Origin: a virus
Lineage: Duplodnaviria; Heunggongvirae; Uroviricota; Caudoviricetes
IMG/VR virus record: IMGVR_UViG_2541047688_000007
Location: 1 to 25,205 of that record
Length of the DNA: 25,205 nt
Reading direction: 5' to 3' (one strand)
Under the pieces are notes generated by a model. The model had not been told where the DNA came from, searched no databases, and saw nothing but the letters and a program-made list of their open reading frames with translations. The translations under genes were made by a program, and so were the position numbers. Below are positions 2,780 to 23,891 of this stretch, piece by piece (within the stretch, counting starts at the first letter, position 1; every line of letters begins with the position of its first letter).

Positions 2780-2785
2780 GCATGT

Positions 2786-2815
2786 AAAAAGGCCCCAACA
2801 CATGTGCGTGGGGCC
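2786..2815 (-). terminator. rho-independent terminator-like hairpin upstream of the lysis cassette
   Basis: Minus-strand GGCCCCA...TGGGGCC 7-bp stem with 11-nt loop followed by TTTTT (plus-strand A-run 2786-2790). Confidence 0.4.
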
Positions 2816-3015
2816 TGAGAGTATACATGGTTTCAGTCAACTGCATGGTGCCGGGTGCCTCCCGGTGAATTCAGTACCAGCACCTGAATCCGCGATTATC
2901 CCATATACCTACTCGCTGATTGCCCCTCCGCACAGGGGGATTCACCATGCCAGTTTCTTTTAACAAACTCCCCGCAAACCAGACAACAGTCAACCGCCTG
3001 AATTGTGAGACATTT

Positions 3016-3040
3016 AAAAAAAAGCCCGCAAAAGCGAGCC
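3016..3040 (-). terminator. rho-independent terminator immediately downstream of the tRNA cluster
   Basis: Minus-strand GCTCGC-TTTT-GCGGGC hairpin followed by T8 (plus-strand A-run 3016-3023), 15 nt after the tRNA-Arg(UCU) 3' end. Confidence 0.45.
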
Positions 3041-3054
3041 AGGGAAAATAAGTG

Positions 3055-3131
3055 TGGCGCGTTGTACTGGATTCGAACCAGTGACCGATTGCTTAGAAGG
3101 CAATTGCTCTGTCCGGCTGAGCTAACAACGC
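3055..3131 (-). tRNA. argO: tRNA-Arg (anticodon UCU)
   Basis: Hand-folded cloverleaf on minus strand: 7-bp acceptor GCGTTGT/ACAACGC, D-arm GCTC...GAGC, anticodon arm ATTGC-CTTCTAA-GCAAT (UCU), T-arm ACTGG-TTCGAAT-CCAGT, encoded CCA; symbol by analogy with the ileZ-argN-argO cluster of Stx/lambdoid phages. Confidence 0.8.
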
Positions 3132-3144
3132 AGGATACAGATAA

Positions 3145-3221
3145 TGGACCGCCTTCGGGGACCCGAACTCCGCGCAACCAGCTTCGAAGGCTGGCGCTCT
3201 TTCCTGATGAGCTAATGGCGG
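3145..3221 (-). tRNA. argN: tRNA-Arg (anticodon UCG), possibly degenerate
   Basis: Minus-strand cloverleaf with anticodon arm CCAGC-CTTCGAA-GCTGG (UCG) and encoded CCA, but one A-A mismatch in the acceptor stem and one A-C mismatch in the T-stem, G at T-loop position 58. Confidence 0.55.
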
Positions 3222-3228
3222 TATGTGA

Positions 3229-3304
3229 TGGTGGCCCTTGCTGGATTTGAACCAGCGACCTGGCGATTATGAGTCGCTCGCTCTCACCACTGAGCTAAAG
3301 GGCC
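3229..3304 (-). tRNA. ileZ: tRNA-Ile2 (anticodon CAU, lysidine-type; formally Met-like anticodon)
   Basis: Minus-strand cloverleaf GGCCCTT...AAGGGCC acceptor, anticodon loop CTCATAA (CAU), T-arm GCTGG-TTCAAAT-CCAGC, encoded CCA; very similar by eye to E. coli ileX-type tRNA. Confidence 0.8.
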
Positions 3305-12194: not shown

Positions 12195-13042
12195 GGGCGA
12201 ACCTCCTTGTCAGAACCATTCAGCCTGGAATCAACAAGTGCAGCGCCAAAAACAGCATCACCAACACGGTCGTACAGTTTGCTAGCCAGCGGAGATTCAA
12301 CGGCCTTAAGCATTGGATAAAGCTGGCTTGTCCAGATTTGATGGATTTCACGCAAATGCAGGTATACGCCTCTGGCGTTTCGTGCGACAGCTGACATATC
12401 AGACGTATCGGCACCTGATAAACTCTTCTCCATCAGGTTAAAGGCGTTGATGTATGCCTCTTTGAACCGGGCAGCACGTTTACCAGTGAAGCCCATGGCA
12501 AGGAACGCGAAGCCATCGCGGGTGATTTGATAGCAAGGTAGTTTGCGGCCTGATGCGTCGGTGTATTCACTTAACACAAAATTGTGTTCAGTAAATTCAG
12601 CGGAACATTCGAGGTTTCTAATTCTATCTAAAACCCGCTCATGCCGTTTAGTAAAGTAATTAGCTACTGCAAGAGATGTGGTGACAACGCGACCATTGAT
12701 AATCGTGATTTCAGGGTGAGATTGGGTTGGGAGAGTAGTCATGGTGACAGCCCCTATGTTGAATTCAATGAACTCACCACCAAGGCTTTCCACGACCATA
12801 TAGGTGGTGAGACGTACAGGGGTGGAAATACCGGTCAACATAGAACCCGGCCCAACCGAAGTTGGCCCTGCACGCCCCACCATAATTTGGGCGTAACGAT
12901 GCTCATGACACGAAAAAACCGCATGAGCGCGGTTGTGCTCTATATTGAATTTCGGGTTTCCACGCCCGGCACCCGCTTTATAAGGTGCAGAGACAGTGTA
13001 ACGTCCCGAAATTGCAGAATCAATATGCTGGTGGCGGATCAT
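12191..13042 (-). CDS. Rha-family phage regulatory protein (paralog 2)
   Basis: Core ITIINGRVVTTSLAVANYFTKRHERVLDRIRNLECSAEF...ITRDGFAFLAMGFTGKRAARFKEAYINAFNLME matches the Rha (Phage_pRha) pattern as I recall it; ~100-aa N-terminal extension whose first residues are shared with the upstream paralog. Confidence 0.7.
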   Translation of the reverse strand: MIRHQHIDSAISGRYTVSAPYKAGAGRGNPKFNIEHNRAHAVFSCHEHRYAQIMVGRAGPTSVGPGSMLTGISTPVRLTTYMVVESLGGEFIEFNIGAVTMTTLPTQSHPEITIINGRVVTTSLAVANYFTKRHERVLDRIRNLECSAEFTEHNFVLSEYTDASGRKLPCYQITRDGFAFLAMGFTGKRAARFKEAYINAFNLMEKSLSGADTSDMSAVARNARGVYLHLREIHQIWTSQLYPMLKAVESPLASKLYDRVGDAVFGAALVDSRLNGSDKEVRP

Positions 13043-13701
13043 AGGTGCACCTCCCGTTGATTACGACGGAACGCGGAGTGACCCTGGACGGTTTCAGCCT
13101 CATGGAATGCTTCAATACAGCTCTCGTAGTACCGCATTGTGCGCAGACTTAACCCAAGCTGAAGCATCATCAGACCATCAAGGGTGATGTAATAACCACG
13201 CAGGGAGTCACCGTAGATGTGATAAGTACCCGGTATGAAATTGCGGGTAAAAAACTCGCGTGAGCAGTTCAGATACTCGATTTTGTCGACGATGTTCTGG
13301 TGCATGCGCTTAAAGTGGCAGGCAACATGCAGGGAGAAAATAACGGCCTTGCCGTTGACAACTTCAATTTTGAGGAATGGGGAAGTTGGGACTGTAGCCA
13401 TGATGGCAGCCTCCGTTGACTGTGGAAAACTTCCACCACCGGAGCTGCGAAACTCACTGGTGGCAGACTGAACAGGGTTCGCAGTACCGGCGTCAACGGA
13501 GACCGGCGAGCCTTTCGGCTCCCCTGCCCAGCCCACCATAATTCTGGCGTGCGTGAGCGCGGACGATAAAAAAGACGCTGGCGCGTCATATATCGCCGTT
13601 GACAATTCCGGGCTGCGACCCCCGGCACCCGCTTTATAAGGTGCAGAGACAGTGTAACGTCCCGAAATTGCAGAATCAATATTTGGTCTTGAAATGATCA
13701 T
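13039..13701 (-). CDS. Rha-family phage regulatory protein (paralog 1, divergent)
   Basis: Core EVVNGKAVIFSLHVACHFKRMHQNIVDKIEYLNCSREF...ITLDGLMMLQLGL resembles the Rha domain; N-terminal DSAISGRYTVSAPYKAGAG shared with the downstream paralog. Confidence 0.6.
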   Translation of the reverse strand: MIISRPNIDSAISGRYTVSAPYKAGAGGRSPELSTAIYDAPASFLSSALTHARIMVGWAGEPKGSPVSVDAGTANPVQSATSEFRSSGGGSFPQSTEAAIMATVPTSPFLKIEVVNGKAVIFSLHVACHFKRMHQNIVDKIEYLNCSREFFTRNFIPGTYHIYGDSLRGYYITLDGLMMLQLGLSLRTMRYYESCIEAFHEAETVQGHSAFRRNQREVHL

Positions 13702-13785: not shown

Positions 13786-13810
13786 AGCCGGGTTACTCCC
13801 GGCTTTTTTT
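13786..13810 (+). terminator. rho-independent terminator-like hairpin, plus-strand oriented
   Basis: 7-bp stem AGCCGGG/CCCGGCT with 5-nt loop followed by T7; T-run abuts the stop codon of the minus-strand Rha gene. Confidence 0.35.
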
Positions 13811-14517
13811 CATCGCTGCCAACCAATAACCTGAAATAACCCCATTTTCGGGTGATACCAGCGAGTCCCTCGCGGTTCTGCTTCCTCCATAACCCGATAA
13901 AAAGCAGCCATAAACGGTTCCACAGCAACAATTGCGCGACGTGACAACAATCCGTCCGGCGTCATGAACTCATGTGTGTCTGTAGGAATTTGATAGGCGT
14001 TCACCAGATTGCGGCATTTATCATCTGACAAACCGGTTTTTGCTTTCAGTTGGCGATATCCGGCATAGCCCTCACGAATAGTGCCCTTTTTAATTTGCTC
14101 GACTGTTTCAGCAACGTGGCTGACTTTTTCTTCCACCTGAGTGATCCGTTTCTGTTGGCGAACGGCTTCAAGAGCCATCGCGGCAACCATTTCGATTTCG
14201 CTCATTGGCTTACGGATCTGTTCTTCCAGTTCGCGCCAGCGATCTACCAGGCGAGCTGTGAATTCAGGACAGAGCTGTGCGACGACAATGATGCTGTCGC
14301 GCTTACCTTGTTCGCCTTCGAAGATGTAAGCACCTACATTTCGTTTTAATCCTAAGTTGTTGATTATTTCGAAATTCGCCATTGGCGCACTTCGAATAAT
14401 CCCCTTATCCATGAGCCTTTCAATGCTGCGCTTAACATCTTTGTGTTGGCTGCCCACCAACTCTGCGATTTCAAGGCTGGTCATGGATGCTTTGCCGTTA
14501 AAAATTGCGGTGTTCAC
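13810..14517 (-). CDS. Rha-family regulatory protein / antirepressor-like (paralog 3)
   Basis: N-terminal MTSLEIAELVGSQHKDVKRSIERL fits the Rha N-terminal pattern; start placed at GTG 14515-14517 (AAGGAG SD at 6 nt); ATG alternatives at 14521-14523 and 14557-14559. Confidence 0.6.
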   Translation of the reverse strand: MNTAIFNGKASMTSLEIAELVGSQHKDVKRSIERLMDKGIIRSAPMANFEIINNLGLKRNVGAYIFEGEQGKRDSIIVVAQLCPEFTARLVDRWRELEEQIRKPMSEIEMVAAMALEAVRQQKRITQVEEKVSHVAETVEQIKKGTIREGYAGYRQLKAKTGLSDDKCRNLVNAYQIPTDTHEFMTPDGLLSRRAIVAVEPFMAAFYRVMEEAEPRGTRWYHPKMGLFQVIGWQR

Positions 14518-14636
14518 TGCCATCTCCTTACGGATAAATTCTTTTAAGATTCCGCACATTCGTACTTATTGGTGCCGAACCTTCCTTCAGTTATCCTTTT
14601 GATCCCTATAAACAAAAGAACCAAAGGAGGTTCGAC

Positions 14637-14930
14637 ATGAAAGTTCAGGCCGTTGGTTTATTCTGGTTTCGCGATGCGATTCAGTATCATGAGCTCAAAA
14701 ATATTTTTACTGATGCTGATGTGCTCTCCGACAGTTACACCGAGTGGAAACACGACGCTGAAAAATTGATTAAGCGTGTCGAAAGAGGCGGGCAACGAGT
14801 TATTAAAGTTGAAGCGGATACAGCCGAGTTCATCGCTTGGTGTACAAGCGAAGGCATTGGAATCAATGCCGAAGGTAGAATGCAGTTCGCATCCTTTAAG
14901 GCTTACCAACAACTTCTCAGCGAACGCTAA
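14637..14930 (+). CDS. hypothetical protein (97 aa)
   Basis: ATG preceded by strong AAAGGAGG SD at ~7 nt; protein-like composition; overlaps an alternative minus-strand ORF (14658..15011), so only one of the two is likely real. Confidence 0.4.
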   Translation: MKVQAVGLFWFRDAIQYHELKNIFTDADVLSDSYTEWKHDAEKLIKRVERGGQRVIKVEADTAEFIAWCTSEGIGINAEGRMQFASFKAYQQLLSER

Positions 14931-15000
14931 TGTGATCGGGGCAATCGAAATGGTTGTCCCATCGTATTTAATAGTTATTTTTTCGCTCATATCACCACCA

Positions 15001-15210
15001 TCACTTCCCATCTTCCGTGTGCGCTAGGCTTGGGTGTGTATATGGAATGCTCGGATCCAAATGACAAAGAATGGCAACATCCTCCGGAACACCTCGCGTT
15101 TTCCACTTTCCAACACCTTGACTGCCACGAGGCCTTCCTTTCTTTGGGAACCTGCGACCAATAGCGGCATTGGTTTTAAATTGAATTTTTAATATTTCAT
15201 AAAGGGTCAT
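15001..15210 (-). CDS. hypothetical small basic protein in the cro position
   Basis: 69-aa ORF immediately leftward of the cI-divergent operator region; contains PKKGRPRGS (AT-hook-like); weak SD; no clear Cro HTH recognised. Confidence 0.3.
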   Translation of the reverse strand: MTLYEILKIQFKTNAAIGRRFPKKGRPRGSQGVGKWKTRGVPEDVAILCHLDPSIPYTHPSLAHTEDGK

Positions 15211-15321
15211 TCTTTAGTCTCACACCAGATACTTTGTTATCCAACGATGTTAACCACAGGAATCCAAAGTATCAAGAAATTCTGTTACTTTAGTATCAAC
15301 AGCCATGAGAGGAGAAGAAAA
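15211..15321. promoter_or_regulatory. immunity-region operator/promoter zone (divergent PR/PRM-like)
   Basis: Intergenic region between the cro-position ORF and the cI-like gene; ATACTTTG (15229-15236) and its inverted copy CAAAGTAT (15265-15272), plus imperfect 26-bp palindrome 15266-15291. Confidence 0.4.
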
Positions 15322-15978
15322 ATGAAGTCTTTAGGTGAACGTCTCATCAACGCACGGCAAAAAGCTGGGTTAACACAAGATGCGTTGGCTAAAAAAGCTG
15401 GGATCACCAGAGTTGCAATCAGTAAAGCCGAGCAAGGCCTTACAAAAAGTTTCAACGGTGACACCCTTTTTAAAGTTGCAGCTGCACTGCGGTGTTCACC
15501 GCAGTGGCTTCAGAACGGAGATGAAAAAGATAAGCATTGGGAAAATAATGTTAAGAGCTGCCCACAGAGAGACACAGCACACTCTTACCCTGTAATTAAC
15601 TGGGTTCAGGCAGGATTATTCGCAACTTCTGGTGATGACTACAACATGTATGATCAGGATAATTGGAGGCATTCTGTAAAATACGCTGGTGAGAGGGGGT
15701 TCTGGCTGGAAGTGCACGGAGACTCAATGACTTCGCCCGTAGGAATAACATTTCCTGAAGGAATGTCGATCCTTGTCAACCCAGATAAAGAAGTTTTTTC
15801 AGGGTGTTACGTCATCGCCAGAAAAAAATCTACCAATGAAGCAACATTCAAAAAATATATTTCTGACATGGGAAAGGCGTTTCTAAAGCCCCTTAATCCA
15901 CAATATCCAATCATAGAAATGGACAATGATTGCGAAATAGTAGGTGTTGTGGTTGATGCCAGGTGGGATATTTTCTGA
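15322..15978 (+). CDS. CI-like prophage repressor (XRE HTH + LexA/S24 peptidase domain)
   Basis: ATG at 15322 with GAGAGGAG SD; N-terminal HTH (LTQDALAKKAGITRVAISKAEQG), C-terminal S24 autopeptidase with GDSM Ser motif and downstream Lys (ATFKKY); track ORF from 15247 over-extends. Confidence 0.85.
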   Translation: MKSLGERLINARQKAGLTQDALAKKAGITRVAISKAEQGLTKSFNGDTLFKVAAALRCSPQWLQNGDEKDKHWENNVKSCPQRDTAHSYPVINWVQAGLFATSGDDYNMYDQDNWRHSVKYAGERGFWLEVHGDSMTSPVGITFPEGMSILVNPDKEVFSGCYVIARKKSTNEATFKKYISDMGKAFLKPLNPQYPIIEMDNDCEIVGVVVDARWDIF

Positions 15979-16081
15979 CCAGACACAAAACACAAAAAGA
16001 AACCAAAGTATCAAAAATCACTTGCCACACCTTGATACCTTAGTTACCATAAAACAAAGTTCGTAACTGAGGTATCATCTC

Positions 16082-16585
16082 ATGATCAATAAAGCTACAA
16101 CTCTTGACTGTCTCGAAGAACTGAAAAACCTCGGCAGCCTCATTACACTAATAGCAAAAGCAACACCTGATGCTACGCTCTCTAGCGATATAGAGTCATG
16201 CGCAGGACTGGCATGGGATATGACAAATAGCATATCCAGAAAGCTATCGTCAGCAATGCTTTTACAGAACAAAAATTCTGCAATCAACAACCGTCTTCGC
16301 ACCCAACGCGAAGCCTGCGGCTTAACAACCGCCGAACTCGCCAGGCTGCTCGATCTCGATGAAGAAATTATCATCCAGTGGGAGAGCGGAGAGTATGAAC
16401 CAACTATCAGTATGCTTATCCCACTGGCAAATATTCTTGGCTGCGATCCGATGTGGCTGTTAACTGGTGAGGTTACTCCTCCGGAGCAACCAAAAAGTGA
16501 GGAGCAGCAACACCATGACGCATCTCAACAAGTTTGCCCCTTATCTCGCGAAGCTCTTCTGCGGAAGAACCAATACCAATGGTGA
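16082..16585 (+). CDS. XRE-family HTH transcriptional regulator
   Basis: C-terminal HTH_XRE-like region (INNRLRTQREACGLTTAELARLLDLDEEIIIQWESGEYEPTISMLIPLANILGCDPMWLL); start uncertain (16082 or internal ATG 16256). Confidence 0.55.
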   Translation: MINKATTLDCLEELKNLGSLITLIAKATPDATLSSDIESCAGLAWDMTNSISRKLSSAMLLQNKNSAINNRLRTQREACGLTTAELARLLDLDEEIIIQWESGEYEPTISMLIPLANILGCDPMWLLTGEVTPPEQPKSEEQQHHDASQQVCPLSREALLRKNQYQW

Positions 16586-16763
16586 CATAATCGCCGCTTC
16601 GCCCTTCAAGGTACATGCGAACATTTTTATCAATCATTGCGGAAACAGTCTCAATATGAAAACACTTCTGAGACTCGCTATATAGCAGAACTGAAGTGGT
16701 TTACTGAATTTGGCCACCTGAACAGAGGTGATATGCTCACCTCAGAACAACACAGGTGCCATA

Positions 16764-17911
<1,148 letters not shown>

Positions 17912-17967
17912 CTCGGTGGCCAGTTTTTGTTGACCACTTCAGAACATATAAGTCAGCTGAGGAAGCC

Positions 17968-21348: not shown

Positions 21349-21861
21349 ATGACCACTATAACCAAAGAGCGACTGCTGACAATCAAGCAGTGGCGCGAAA
21401 CATACGGACCGGGTAGCAACGTTGTGCTTCCAGCAGAAGAAGCGGAAGAGCTGGCACGGATTGCGCTGGCATCACTGGCAGCAGAGCCGGTGGCAAAGAT
21501 TATAGCTCATTACCCATTAGGAGTTGACGTAGGCAAACAAAAATTCGTACAGGCCATTAGAGAGCTTCCTGACTTTGGCGGATATCTATTTGCCGCCCCT
21601 CCAGCGCCGATAGTGCCGGAAGAAATGTATTGGCAGGATGCGCCAGTTGAAGGCAGCAGCAAAGCGGCTGCATACGCTACAGGCTGGAACGATTGCCGCG
21701 AAGCCATGCTTCAGTCCGGAAACTTTCGGGAAAATAAAGATTCGTCAACCAATAATTTTCGGAAAATCCCGGAAGCGTCAACCAGCTCTCCGGTAACTCC
21801 GGATGGTTGGATAAGCTGTAGTGAGCGAATGCCGGACGACAGGCAGGAGGTGAATCAATGA
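21349..21861 (+). CDS. hypothetical phage protein, DUF551-like C-terminus
   Basis: 170-aa ORF; C-terminal DGWISCSERMP resembles the W-x-x-E-R-(L/M)-P motif I associate with DUF551. Confidence 0.5.
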   Translation: MTTITKERLLTIKQWRETYGPGSNVVLPAEEAEELARIALASLAAEPVAKIIAHYPLGVDVGKQKFVQAIRELPDFGGYLFAAPPAPIVPEEMYWQDAPVEGSSKAAAYATGWNDCREAMLQSGNFRENKDSSTNNFRKIPEASTSSPVTPDGWISCSERMPDDRQEVNQ

Positions 21862-21945
21862 GCTGGCCTGATGCAATCGTAACTCTGGGGGTGGTATTCG
21901 CAGCAGCGTTTGTTGTGTTCTCGATTTGTCGATGGGGATAACCAC

Positions 21946-22188: not shown

Positions 22189-22520
22189 AGAATGAATAAA
22201 GCATTTGAACGATGGGTCCACCAGCGTTACGGCAATCGCTATGACCTGACGCGAGATGTTGACGGCTTCTACTGTCGTGAAGTTGTGAAGCGAATGTTTG
22301 AAGTGTGGTGCCACTGCCGTGGGCTGAGTGTTGTGTGAGGTAATACATGGGCAATGTGATTCAACTGGCTCCCAATGAATGGGTTTGTGAAAGCGTTCTT
22401 ATCGCAATTACCGGGCTCAAACCAGGCACAATTCTTCGGGCCCGGAAATGAAGTGGTTTACTGAATTTGGCCACCTGAACAGAGGTGATATGCTCACCTC
22501 AGAACAACACAGGTGCCATA

Positions 22521-23668
<1,148 letters not shown>

Positions 23669-23891
23669 CTCGGTGGCCAGTTTTTGTTGACCACTTCAAA
23701 AGAATGCTGGATGGTTGGAAGAGAGTATATTCACGTATCACCAGACGGTAATCCAAAGCCTTCCAGTGAATGTATGTATAACAGAAAAGCAATAGATGCC
23801 TGGGTCGCCTCAATGAAAAACAAACAACCCAGGTGATTTAATATCATGAAATATGTAAGCTCGTATCGCTCTTGGGCGTCTGGAGGTATCG

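Follow-up and report, generated by a model that had tools for sequence, protein, structure and literature searches.

Probable primary immunity region of a lambdoid, phiP27-like Escherichia coli prophage: a lambda-like switch with a P22-type Cro variant and a moron-like accessory gene

Organisation of the locus and its prophage context

The window, that is, the whole stretch of 25,205 nucleotides that was analysed, carries a compact group of genes consisting of a cI-like repressor gene, a divergently oriented 69-codon gene and a 97-codon gene, which is convergent with the latter and overlapped by a long antisense reading frame. The group is flanked by genes for a Rha/Ant-type regulator and for a helix-turn-helix (HTH) protein, and candidate operators and promoters are found on either side of cI (Table 1).

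The segment 14400-16100 occurs with 100% identity in a chromosomal prophage of E. coli SCU-387 and in several other human isolates, and a match to it is present in 283 of 5,426 complete E. coli genomes. According to the RefSeq annotation, the neighbourhood is that of a lambdoid prophage, with genes for terminase, lysis, the Q antiterminator, helicase/loader and other replication functions, Rha/Ant regulators, excisionase and integrase. On its cI side, the region shows 95% identity with phiP27, an Stx2e phage. The Rha/Ant-type gene matches Pfam Phage_pRha (E 3.7e-8) and phrog_63, anti-repressor Ant (E 8e-49), and in a Yersinia locus (L005) a Rha homologue comes directly after cro.

Table 1. Genes and predicted elements of the immunity region, with positions in the window
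Feature	Position	Strand	Remarks
Rha/Ant-type regulator	13810-14559	-	next early-right gene after cro; RefSeq start 14523
Conserved 5' leader of the cassette, ~70 bp	14567-14636	+	contains AAAGGAGG Shine-Dalgarno (14623-14630) and predicted hairpin
97-aa gene, moron-like	14637-14930	+	phrog_4753; convergent with cro; RefSeq WP_000867909.1
Putative shadow frame, 117 codons, judged non-coding	14658-15011	-	antisense to 97-aa gene, codon position 2 in common
10-bp stem-loop, candidate terminator/stabiliser	14938-14960	+	directly after 97-aa stop codon; weak T tract
cro, 69-aa lytic repressor, all-alpha P22/N15 type	15001-15210	-	phrog_4749 (E 5e-49); phiP27 L12 homologue
5-residue insertion in HTH turn	15127-15141	-	codons 24-28 (KGRPR), core of PKKGRPRGS
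Candidate OR site nearest cro ('OR1')	15228-15241		GATACTTTGTTATC; just downstream of PR -10; position kept in 7 lineages
PR-like promoter for cro	15247-15275	-	TTGATA, 17-bp spacer, TAACAT; -35 inside middle operator
Candidate middle OR site	15260-15273		GAATCCAAAGTATC; 32 bp centre to centre from OR1
Candidate OR site nearest cI	15284-15297		GTTACTTTAGTATC; 24 bp from middle site; over likely PRM -10 region
cI, lambda-type repressor, 218 aa	15322-15978	+	HTH_3 and S24 autopeptidase domains
OL region, three candidate operators	15999-16076		sites 15999-16012, 16034-16047 and 16063-16076, around PL-like promoter
PL-like promoter	16022-16050	+	TTGCCA-17-TACCAT; overlaps middle OL site (spacer and -10)
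First gene of PL operon, 167-aa HTH protein	16082-16585	+	phrog_4739 (E 3.6e-99); Pfam HTH_3 (E 3.8e-11)

The repressor and the operators flanking its gene

In the CI repressor of lambda, an Ala-Gly bond is the cleavage site and a Ser and a Lys form the catalytic dyad. The window cI matches Pfam HTH_3 (E 1.7e-14) and Peptidase_S24 (E 3.2e-22) and aligns over its full length with the lambda repressor 3BDN in a phmmer search (E 8.7e-34), its residues VQAG/LF, GDSM and FKK aligning with the Ala-Gly, Ser and Lys positions of lambda. The N-terminal HTH, the C-terminal S24 domain, the Ala-Gly site and the Ser/Lys dyad of a lambda-type CI are thus all recognisable in its sequence.

The octamer ATACTTTG and its inverted copy CAAAGTAT had been proposed as operator half-sites in the initial annotation. 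Both are present, at 15229-15236 and 15265-15272, and both belong to a larger set of six 14-bp candidate operators that conform approximately to GATAC-N4-GTATC, counted at up to two mismatches. All six lie in the intergenic stretches on either side of cI (111 and 103 bp, 214 bp in all), three in OR and three downstream of cI in OL. Shuffled sequence contains 7.19 such sites per 25,205 bp, which corresponds to about 0.06 expected in 214 bp as against the six observed, with our own Poisson estimate at about 7e-11; the rest of the 25-kb window holds nine, close to the shuffle expectation of 7.2. As members of six clustered sites whose spacing recurs in other genera, the octamers go beyond a chance occurrence.

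Seven lineages, namely the window, phiP27 and five other genera, share exactly the same spacing of the OR sites (24 and 32 bp). The register TTGATA-17-TAnnnT of the PR-like promoter can be read in the relatives L003-L007 and L010, in which the OL/PL arrangement is also homologous, with two or three OL sites. Proteus and Providencia, whose cI is only about 43% identical, carry a GAAAC-type variant of the operator. A half-site derived from 38 sites reads (A/T)(T/A)T-G-A-(T/A)-A-C-T-(A/T), i.e. TGAWACTW, and the flanks and spacers of the operators are A/T-rich. Related palindromes, three and three, are found on both sides of cI over divergent promoters, where they cover the -35 and the start region of PR and the spacer and -10 of PL, which is the arrangement of a tripartite operator. 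The name 'OR1' for the site nearest cro is used in a positional sense only, and does not stand for an order of occupancy. The promoter scan gave no consensus match for PRM, so that its position over the cI-proximal site is one that we infer.

An imperfect palindrome of 26 bp had also been listed among the candidate operators. Its best version (15266-15291) pairs at 9 of 13 positions, a score that 70 of 500 shuffled sequences reach, and it was rejected as an element of its own, being made up of the facing half-sites of two neighbouring operators.

Identity of the 69-residue protein

The 69-codon frame and its PKKGRPRGS motif (residues 22-30) are present as first described. The protein gives no direct match to Pfam or NCBIfam, even at E 0.1, and PADLOC is also blank; a search of the PDB with the profile of its own family returned noise only (a Nup358 repeat). 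An exhaustive profile search of 1.84 billion representative proteins (50% identity) recovered only 16 representatives, which points to a very narrow clade. The close homologues (n=42) come from Escherichia, Klebsiella, Yersinia, Salmonella, Photorhabdus, Xenorhabdus, Providencia and others, and are strongly conserved up to residue 59, beyond which the tails vary.

Kinship with known Cro proteins was traced transitively, through a sister clade. Ten distant relatives (P0064-P0073) have in common the framework LYxxL...WK..G(V/I)PE..A.LCHL...PY and an ordinary turn, FGV(S/T)R. Seven of the ten match Pfam P22_Cro (PF14549) at E <= 0.002, one of them above the gathering score (31.2 vs 30.2 bits). 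The sister-clade profile matches the sequence of the P22 Cro structure 1RZS (E 3.6e-5), and hhalign aligns the clade of the 69-residue protein with the sister clade at 99.7% (E 5e-26), leaving a single gap of five residues.

An AlphaFold2 model built from the family alignment (pLDDT 92) predicts a small single-domain, helical repressor-like fold with an HTH and four helices (residues 3-11, 14-20, 30-39 and 43-51). The best structural matches are Cro proteins. A Foldseek comparison with the PDB was not significant (best E 0.77), but here too Cro proteins stood at ranks 1 and 3. The earlier impression that the protein has no obvious HTH is thus mistaken, since both the model and the alignment of the relatives indicate an HTH whose turn has been lengthened.

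The position of the gene is also that of cro. It is divergent from cI across a gap of 111 bp in the window, and the same divergent arrangement with a cI homologue is seen in phiP27 and in all 10 loci examined from other Enterobacterales species (Raoultella, Phytobacter, Yersinia, Photorhabdus, Pantoea, Proteus, Xenorhabdus and Providencia), the cI homologues of the latter being 42-72% identical and the cro-cI distance ranging from 100 to 137 bp. L12 of phiP27 has previously been treated as cro ('Cro12'), with degenerate cro12 primers published for phage P27 (Smith et al. 2012, PMC3430580). Translated, these primers give MTLYEI and GKQSEV, with which phiP27 L12 begins and ends. Taken together, homology, predicted fold and gene position identify the 69-residue protein as a Cro of the P22/N15 all-alpha type, and as a variant of that family, given its 5-residue insertion relative to the relatives with the turn FGV(S/T)R.

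The AT-hook-like motif as an insertion in the HTH turn

The motif PKKGRPRGS had been likened to an AT-hook. One could accordingly regard the 69-residue protein not as a Cro but as an A/T binder of the AT-hook or nucleoid-associated type and the phage as one without a classical Cro, and the resemblance of K-K-G-R-P-R-G in the window copy to an AT-hook, the lack of a direct family match and the A/T-rich surroundings of the operators would all agree with this. We consider it very unlikely. Across 36 family sequences P22, G25 and R28 are invariant, but position 26 varies between K, R, S, T and N and position 27 between P, A, S, T and V, so that the RGRP core is not conserved. The segment is modelled with confidence (block pLDDT 95) as an ordered loop between two helices of the repressor-like fold rather than as a flexible stretch. 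The Cro proteins among the structural matches, the P22_Cro membership of the relatives that have no insertion and the cro position of the gene in 12 of 12 loci point in the same direction.

The AT-hook is thus not borne out, and the motif is better explained as an insertion in the turn of the HTH of a P22-type Cro. MAFFT and hhalign both place a clean gap of five residues against the relatives with the canonical turn, and these relatives are P22-type Cro proteins; the 'AT-hook' therefore corresponds to K24-R28. In the model, the helices at 14-20 and 30-39 are joined by a connection of nine residues, an atypical 'turn' that departs from the canonical tight HTH of about 19-20 residues. The pattern P-x-K/R-G-x-x-R is, judging by the family alignment, a family trait and no true AT-hook. 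The inserted residues may contact the A/T-rich outer flank of the operator half-sites through the backbone or the minor groove.

Coding strand of the overlapping reading frames

To the left of cro, a plus-strand and a minus-strand reading frame overlap almost completely, and the coding strand had on this account been described as unresolved. Both frames are confirmed, the plus-strand one being preceded by a AAAGGAGG Shine-Dalgarno sequence six bases before its ATG. Substitution patterns and homology searches settle the matter in favour of the plus strand. In four diverged homologous loci, with 66-76 substitutions, the third codon position of the plus frame takes 64-67% of the substitutions and the second about 10%; dN/dS is 0.06-0.14 in the plus frame vs 0.8-1.03 in the minus frame, and the protein identity is 77-81% vs 48-54%. 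The 97-residue protein matches phrog_4753 at 97 of 97 positions (E 2.5e-49), has homologues of 95-97 residues with 60-98% identity in several Enterobacterales genera, and is the product annotated by RefSeq at this place.

The minus-strand frame of 117 codons is read in the direction of the early-right operon and begins within the end of cro, with an ATG 8 bases ahead of the cro stop codon. It is free of stops in all four diverged loci and in the majority of E. coli alleles. These features would suit a real or second overlapping gene translated from the PR transcript after cro. Such a gene is nevertheless barely credible. Apart from its high dN/dS and low amino acid identity, most substitutions fall on the first codon position of this frame, no match to it was found in Pfam, PHROG or NCBIfam, no Shine-Dalgarno sequence lies at a usable distance, and alleles with stops in the frame exist (L024 and the L034 group). 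Its openness is itself accounted for by the composition of the plus-strand gene. The stops of the minus frame correspond to the sense codons TTA, CTA and TCA; the only such codon of the plus gene, a TTA, marks the end of the minus ORF, while the diverged homologues have none among their 4 Leu and 2-5 Ser codons. Leu and Ser codons are few in the plus gene as a whole (4-6 Leu, 2-5 Ser). With so few Leu and Ser codons, and TTA, CTA and TCA nearly absent, a long antisense frame is to be expected as a shadow. The patterns of substitution and the family match thus indicate that the plus-strand ORF is a real protein-coding gene and the minus-strand ORF its shadow frame.

A mobile cassette behind cro

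In diverged loci, the 97-codon gene is part of a conserved cassette of about 415 bp (14567-14981) that consists of leader, gene and hairpin, the homology starting at 14567-14569. In the consensus fold of the leader, the Shine-Dalgarno sequence and the start codon are predicted to pair with 14572-14590 (MFE -21.5 kcal/mol, z -3.7); a leader that would occlude its own Shine-Dalgarno sequence suggests regulated translation of the gene. The promoter scan detected no consensus sigma-70 promoter in the conserved leader. The stem-loop at the 3' end keeps 10 of 10 pairs in six diverged sequences, with one-sided wobble changes only. A terminator-like hairpin on the minus strand at 14633-14618 is not claimed as an analogue of tR1, since its T tract is absent from the diverged cassettes and its sequence is the complement of the conserved Shine-Dalgarno region.

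Neither phiP27 nor any of the 10 loci of other species with the same cro-cI pair contains the cassette. In the comparison with phiP27 the homology is interrupted between 14543 and 15007, the gap in phiP27 being filled by an unrelated plus-strand gene, L13 (223 aa), and a Phytobacter prophage carries a reverse-oriented ORF of 141 aa in the slot after cro; neither L13 nor the 141-aa ORF has a family match. The cassette immediately follows the 3' end of cro, in convergent orientation, in loci with at least five different types of Cro (P22-like, YdaS-like and others), and the neighbours on its other side vary among the loci. In the E. coli loci the shared homology extends to 15033-15038, and thus takes in the last ~30 nt of cro, as a result of which different Cro proteins share the tail PSLAHTED(G/E)K.

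Separating genes that are neighbours in relatives, and mobile among phages, the 97-codon gene is, by its sequence context, a moron-like accessory cassette gene. Of the earlier suggestion of a moron or an unconventional regulator, the first part is upheld by this plus-strand gene; the second survives only in so far as the Cro is somewhat unusual on account of the basic 5-residue insertion in its HTH turn. The 97-residue protein has no functional family and no DNA-binding or other domain in Pfam, NCBIfam or PADLOC, profile searches returned no more distant relatives, and its AlphaFold2 model is poor (pLDDT 58). Since transcription from PR meets the gene head-on, the gene is most likely expressed when PR is off, i.e. 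in the lysogen.

In view of its constant position after cro, the cassette might conceivably have a function connected with cro. The 97-residue protein might be a part of the switch, as a modulator of Cro or of Rha/Ant, or the convergent transcription of its gene might damp the read-through from PR into the antirepressor genes. The convergent placement behind at least five unrelated Cro types with differing downstream neighbours is strikingly constant for a gene carried as mere cargo, and the inclusion of the end of cro in the shared homology and the occluded Shine-Dalgarno sequence would also fit such a role. We nevertheless consider it unlikely, since the absence of the cassette behind the same cro-cI pair implies that the switch works without the gene, two natural alleles of the gene have premature stops, the protein has no recognisable domain, and the slot is occupied elsewhere by unrelated reverse-oriented genes (L13 and the Phytobacter ORF), as expected for a hot spot of insertion. 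A moron-like accessory gene is thus the reading preferred here.

Comparison with known systems

The immunity region of lambda has the same gene order and orientations (OL/PL - cI - OR/PRM/PR - cro), with three OR and three OL operators over PR and PL, as predicted here, and the window cI is a full-length homologue of lambda CI with the Ala-Gly site and the Ser/Lys dyad. The two regions differ in several respects. Lambda Cro is an alpha+beta protein, whereas the window Cro is predicted to be helical. The operators differ in sequence and spacing (here 24/32 and 29/35 bp, centre to centre). The window cI is preceded by a Shine-Dalgarno sequence, whereas that of lambda has a leaderless start; the PL operon opens with a gene for an HTH protein and not with N; and cro is followed by a gene in reverse orientation.

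The Cro proteins of P22 and N15 (PF14549; 1RZS, 2HIN, 3BD1), whose all-alpha fold class is described in PMC6649833, resemble the window Cro in size, in the helical repressor-like fold and in gene position as the first gene of PR. Besides the transitive homology, the recognition-helix region 'AV..WK..G(V/I)P' is held in common. The window Cro differs from them by the basic insertion, which lengthens its HTH motif to ~24 residues from the usual 19-20, as well as by the lack of a direct Pfam match and the narrowness of its clade.

In phiP27, L11 (repressor) is 98% identical to the window cI and L12 91% identical to the window Cro, and the OR is the same. phiP27 differs in the presence of L13 as the reverse-oriented gene after cro, and in the C-terminal tail of Cro.

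Morons, a concept attributed to Hendrix and colleagues, are independently transcribed accessory genes located between conserved genes of lambdoid phages. The cassette is likewise a compact leader-gene-hairpin unit that separates genes lying side by side in relatives, and it occurs in several otherwise different phages. It differs from morons in that its promoter is putative, in that it lies antisense within the early-right operon and not in the late region, and in its unusually constant position directly after cro.

Proposed mechanism and conclusions

The stretch 14560-16080 very probably represents the primary immunity region of a lambdoid prophage that resembles phiP27, and comprises a lambda-like switch and an accessory gene. 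This interpretation draws upon the homologies, the predicted fold, the geometry and conservation of operators and promoters, the coding strand and the boundaries of the cassette. In such a switch, dimers of cI would bind the three ~16-bp palindromes (TGAWAC-TWWA-GTWTCA) on each side of cI, and thereby shut PR, which is directed leftward in the window into cro, and PL, which is directed rightward. RecA-stimulated self-cleavage at the Ala-Gly bond would inactivate cI. Cro would be the first product of PR, and presumably binds the same operators and lowers the synthesis of cI. The cassette of ~415 bp would have been inserted backwards behind cro, ahead of the Rha/Ant gene that comes next among the early genes.

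The view expressed in the initial annotation, that the region does not look like a canonical cro-cI switch, is contradicted by the lambda layout, the three sites in each operator region and the full-length homologue of lambda CI. Homology fixes the coding strand and identifies what is essentially a standard Cro, which are the findings that had been named as speaking against that view. The impression of ambiguity arose from the interrupted HTH of Cro, the shadow ORF and the reverse-oriented moron. The immunity module is conventional and its switch ordinary, and it has in part been recognised in the literature already.

A more far-reaching proposal, to which we attach a low probability, concerns both of the less usual components. 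The invariant P-x-(K/R)-G-x-x-R hairpin in the HTH turn might be a functional additional arm for reading DNA. By touching the A/T-rich outer flank (WWT) of each half-site, in the minor groove or along the backbone, it would make Cro and cI differ in their preferences among the same operators. Separately, the 97-codon gene might encode a factor that is expressed in the lysogen, specific to its position and functionally tied to cro, and not a random piece of cargo. If this were true, the DNA-reading arm would represent a previously undescribed means of tuning the Cro/CI switch.

Two 'hypothetical proteins' of hundreds of E. coli prophages and of the Stx2e phage phiP27 can now be annotated, as a P22-type Cro and as the product of a plus-strand accessory gene. 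The effect of the insertion on DNA recognition, and the role of the 97-residue protein behind cro in at least five immunity types, are further points of modest interest. Operators and promoters can likewise now be defined for this type of immunity, which helps to predict, for Stx-related prophages, both the immunity group and the behaviour on induction.

The cro end and the adjoining cassette

The C-terminal tail PSLAHTED(G/E)K of Cro in the window is shared with unrelated Cro proteins of three loci (L014, L023 and L025), which are 90, 89 and 81 aa long and belong to YdaS-like and other types. The mosaic junction of the cassette that carries the 97-aa gene, convergent with cro, falls within the 3' end of cro (window 15001-15038). 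In the leader of the 97-aa gene (window 14570-14640, plus strand), a long hairpin is predicted (MFE -21.5 kcal/mol, z -3.7), which would sequester the gene's own Shine-Dalgarno sequence and start codon; its arms are kept in the diverged cassettes, with few compensatory changes. Premature stops (W37* and E36*) are present in two natural alleles of the gene, on the IMG/VR contigs L033 and L040, and are consistent with its being a dispensable accessory gene.

After cro, five of the relatives examined encode a conserved protein of about 90-113 aa carrying the motif DDGKWIQE...YRKDN.ARR.AN.RLREF; the window lacks this protein. No Pfam family was found for the one member scanned, and the protein is possibly the product of the cII-position gene of this phage group.

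Coordinates of the additional features identified in the window and its relatives
Feature	Position	Strand or orientation	Evidence
STnc100 sRNA and three adjoining tRNA genes	2780-3304	minus	STnc100, 139 bits
IsrK sRNA and C4 antisense RNA pair, two tandem copies	12800-12988, 13456-13644	minus	Rfam
Post-cro protein of about 90-113 aa	about 3190-3560 in L006, L007, L008, L010, L011
IS3-family insertion sequences (n=2)	16692-17939, 22453-23698	direct	HTH_Tnp_1 and rve ORFs

Structured RNAs

The region of the window carrying the STnc100 and tRNA genes aligns with the annotated tRNA cluster (Arg, Arg, Ile) of the SCU-387 prophage, a chromosomal relative in E. coli, in which the cluster is located upstream of the lysis genes. 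Searches against Rfam identified IsrK (RF01394, 58.7-61.6 bits) and C4 antisense RNA (RF01695, 78.8-82.4 bits) in pairs located a short way downstream from the first Rha/Ant gene. These tandem pairs look like a duplicated, C4-controlled antirepressor module of the P1/P7 immI type. The ORFs enclosing them carry the RefSeq annotations 'ash family protein' and Rha-family protein (N-terminus), and the N-terminal portions of both annotated proteins may represent translated RNA genes.

Insertion sequences

The two IS3-family elements, which are 100% identical across 1,244 bp, bracket about 4.5 kb of early-left sequence, and neither is present in the SCU-387 prophage, which is otherwise >99% identical. 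Since the second copy maps within the position of the excisionase gene (21694-21930 in locus L001), the prophage copy represented by the window may be unable to excise.
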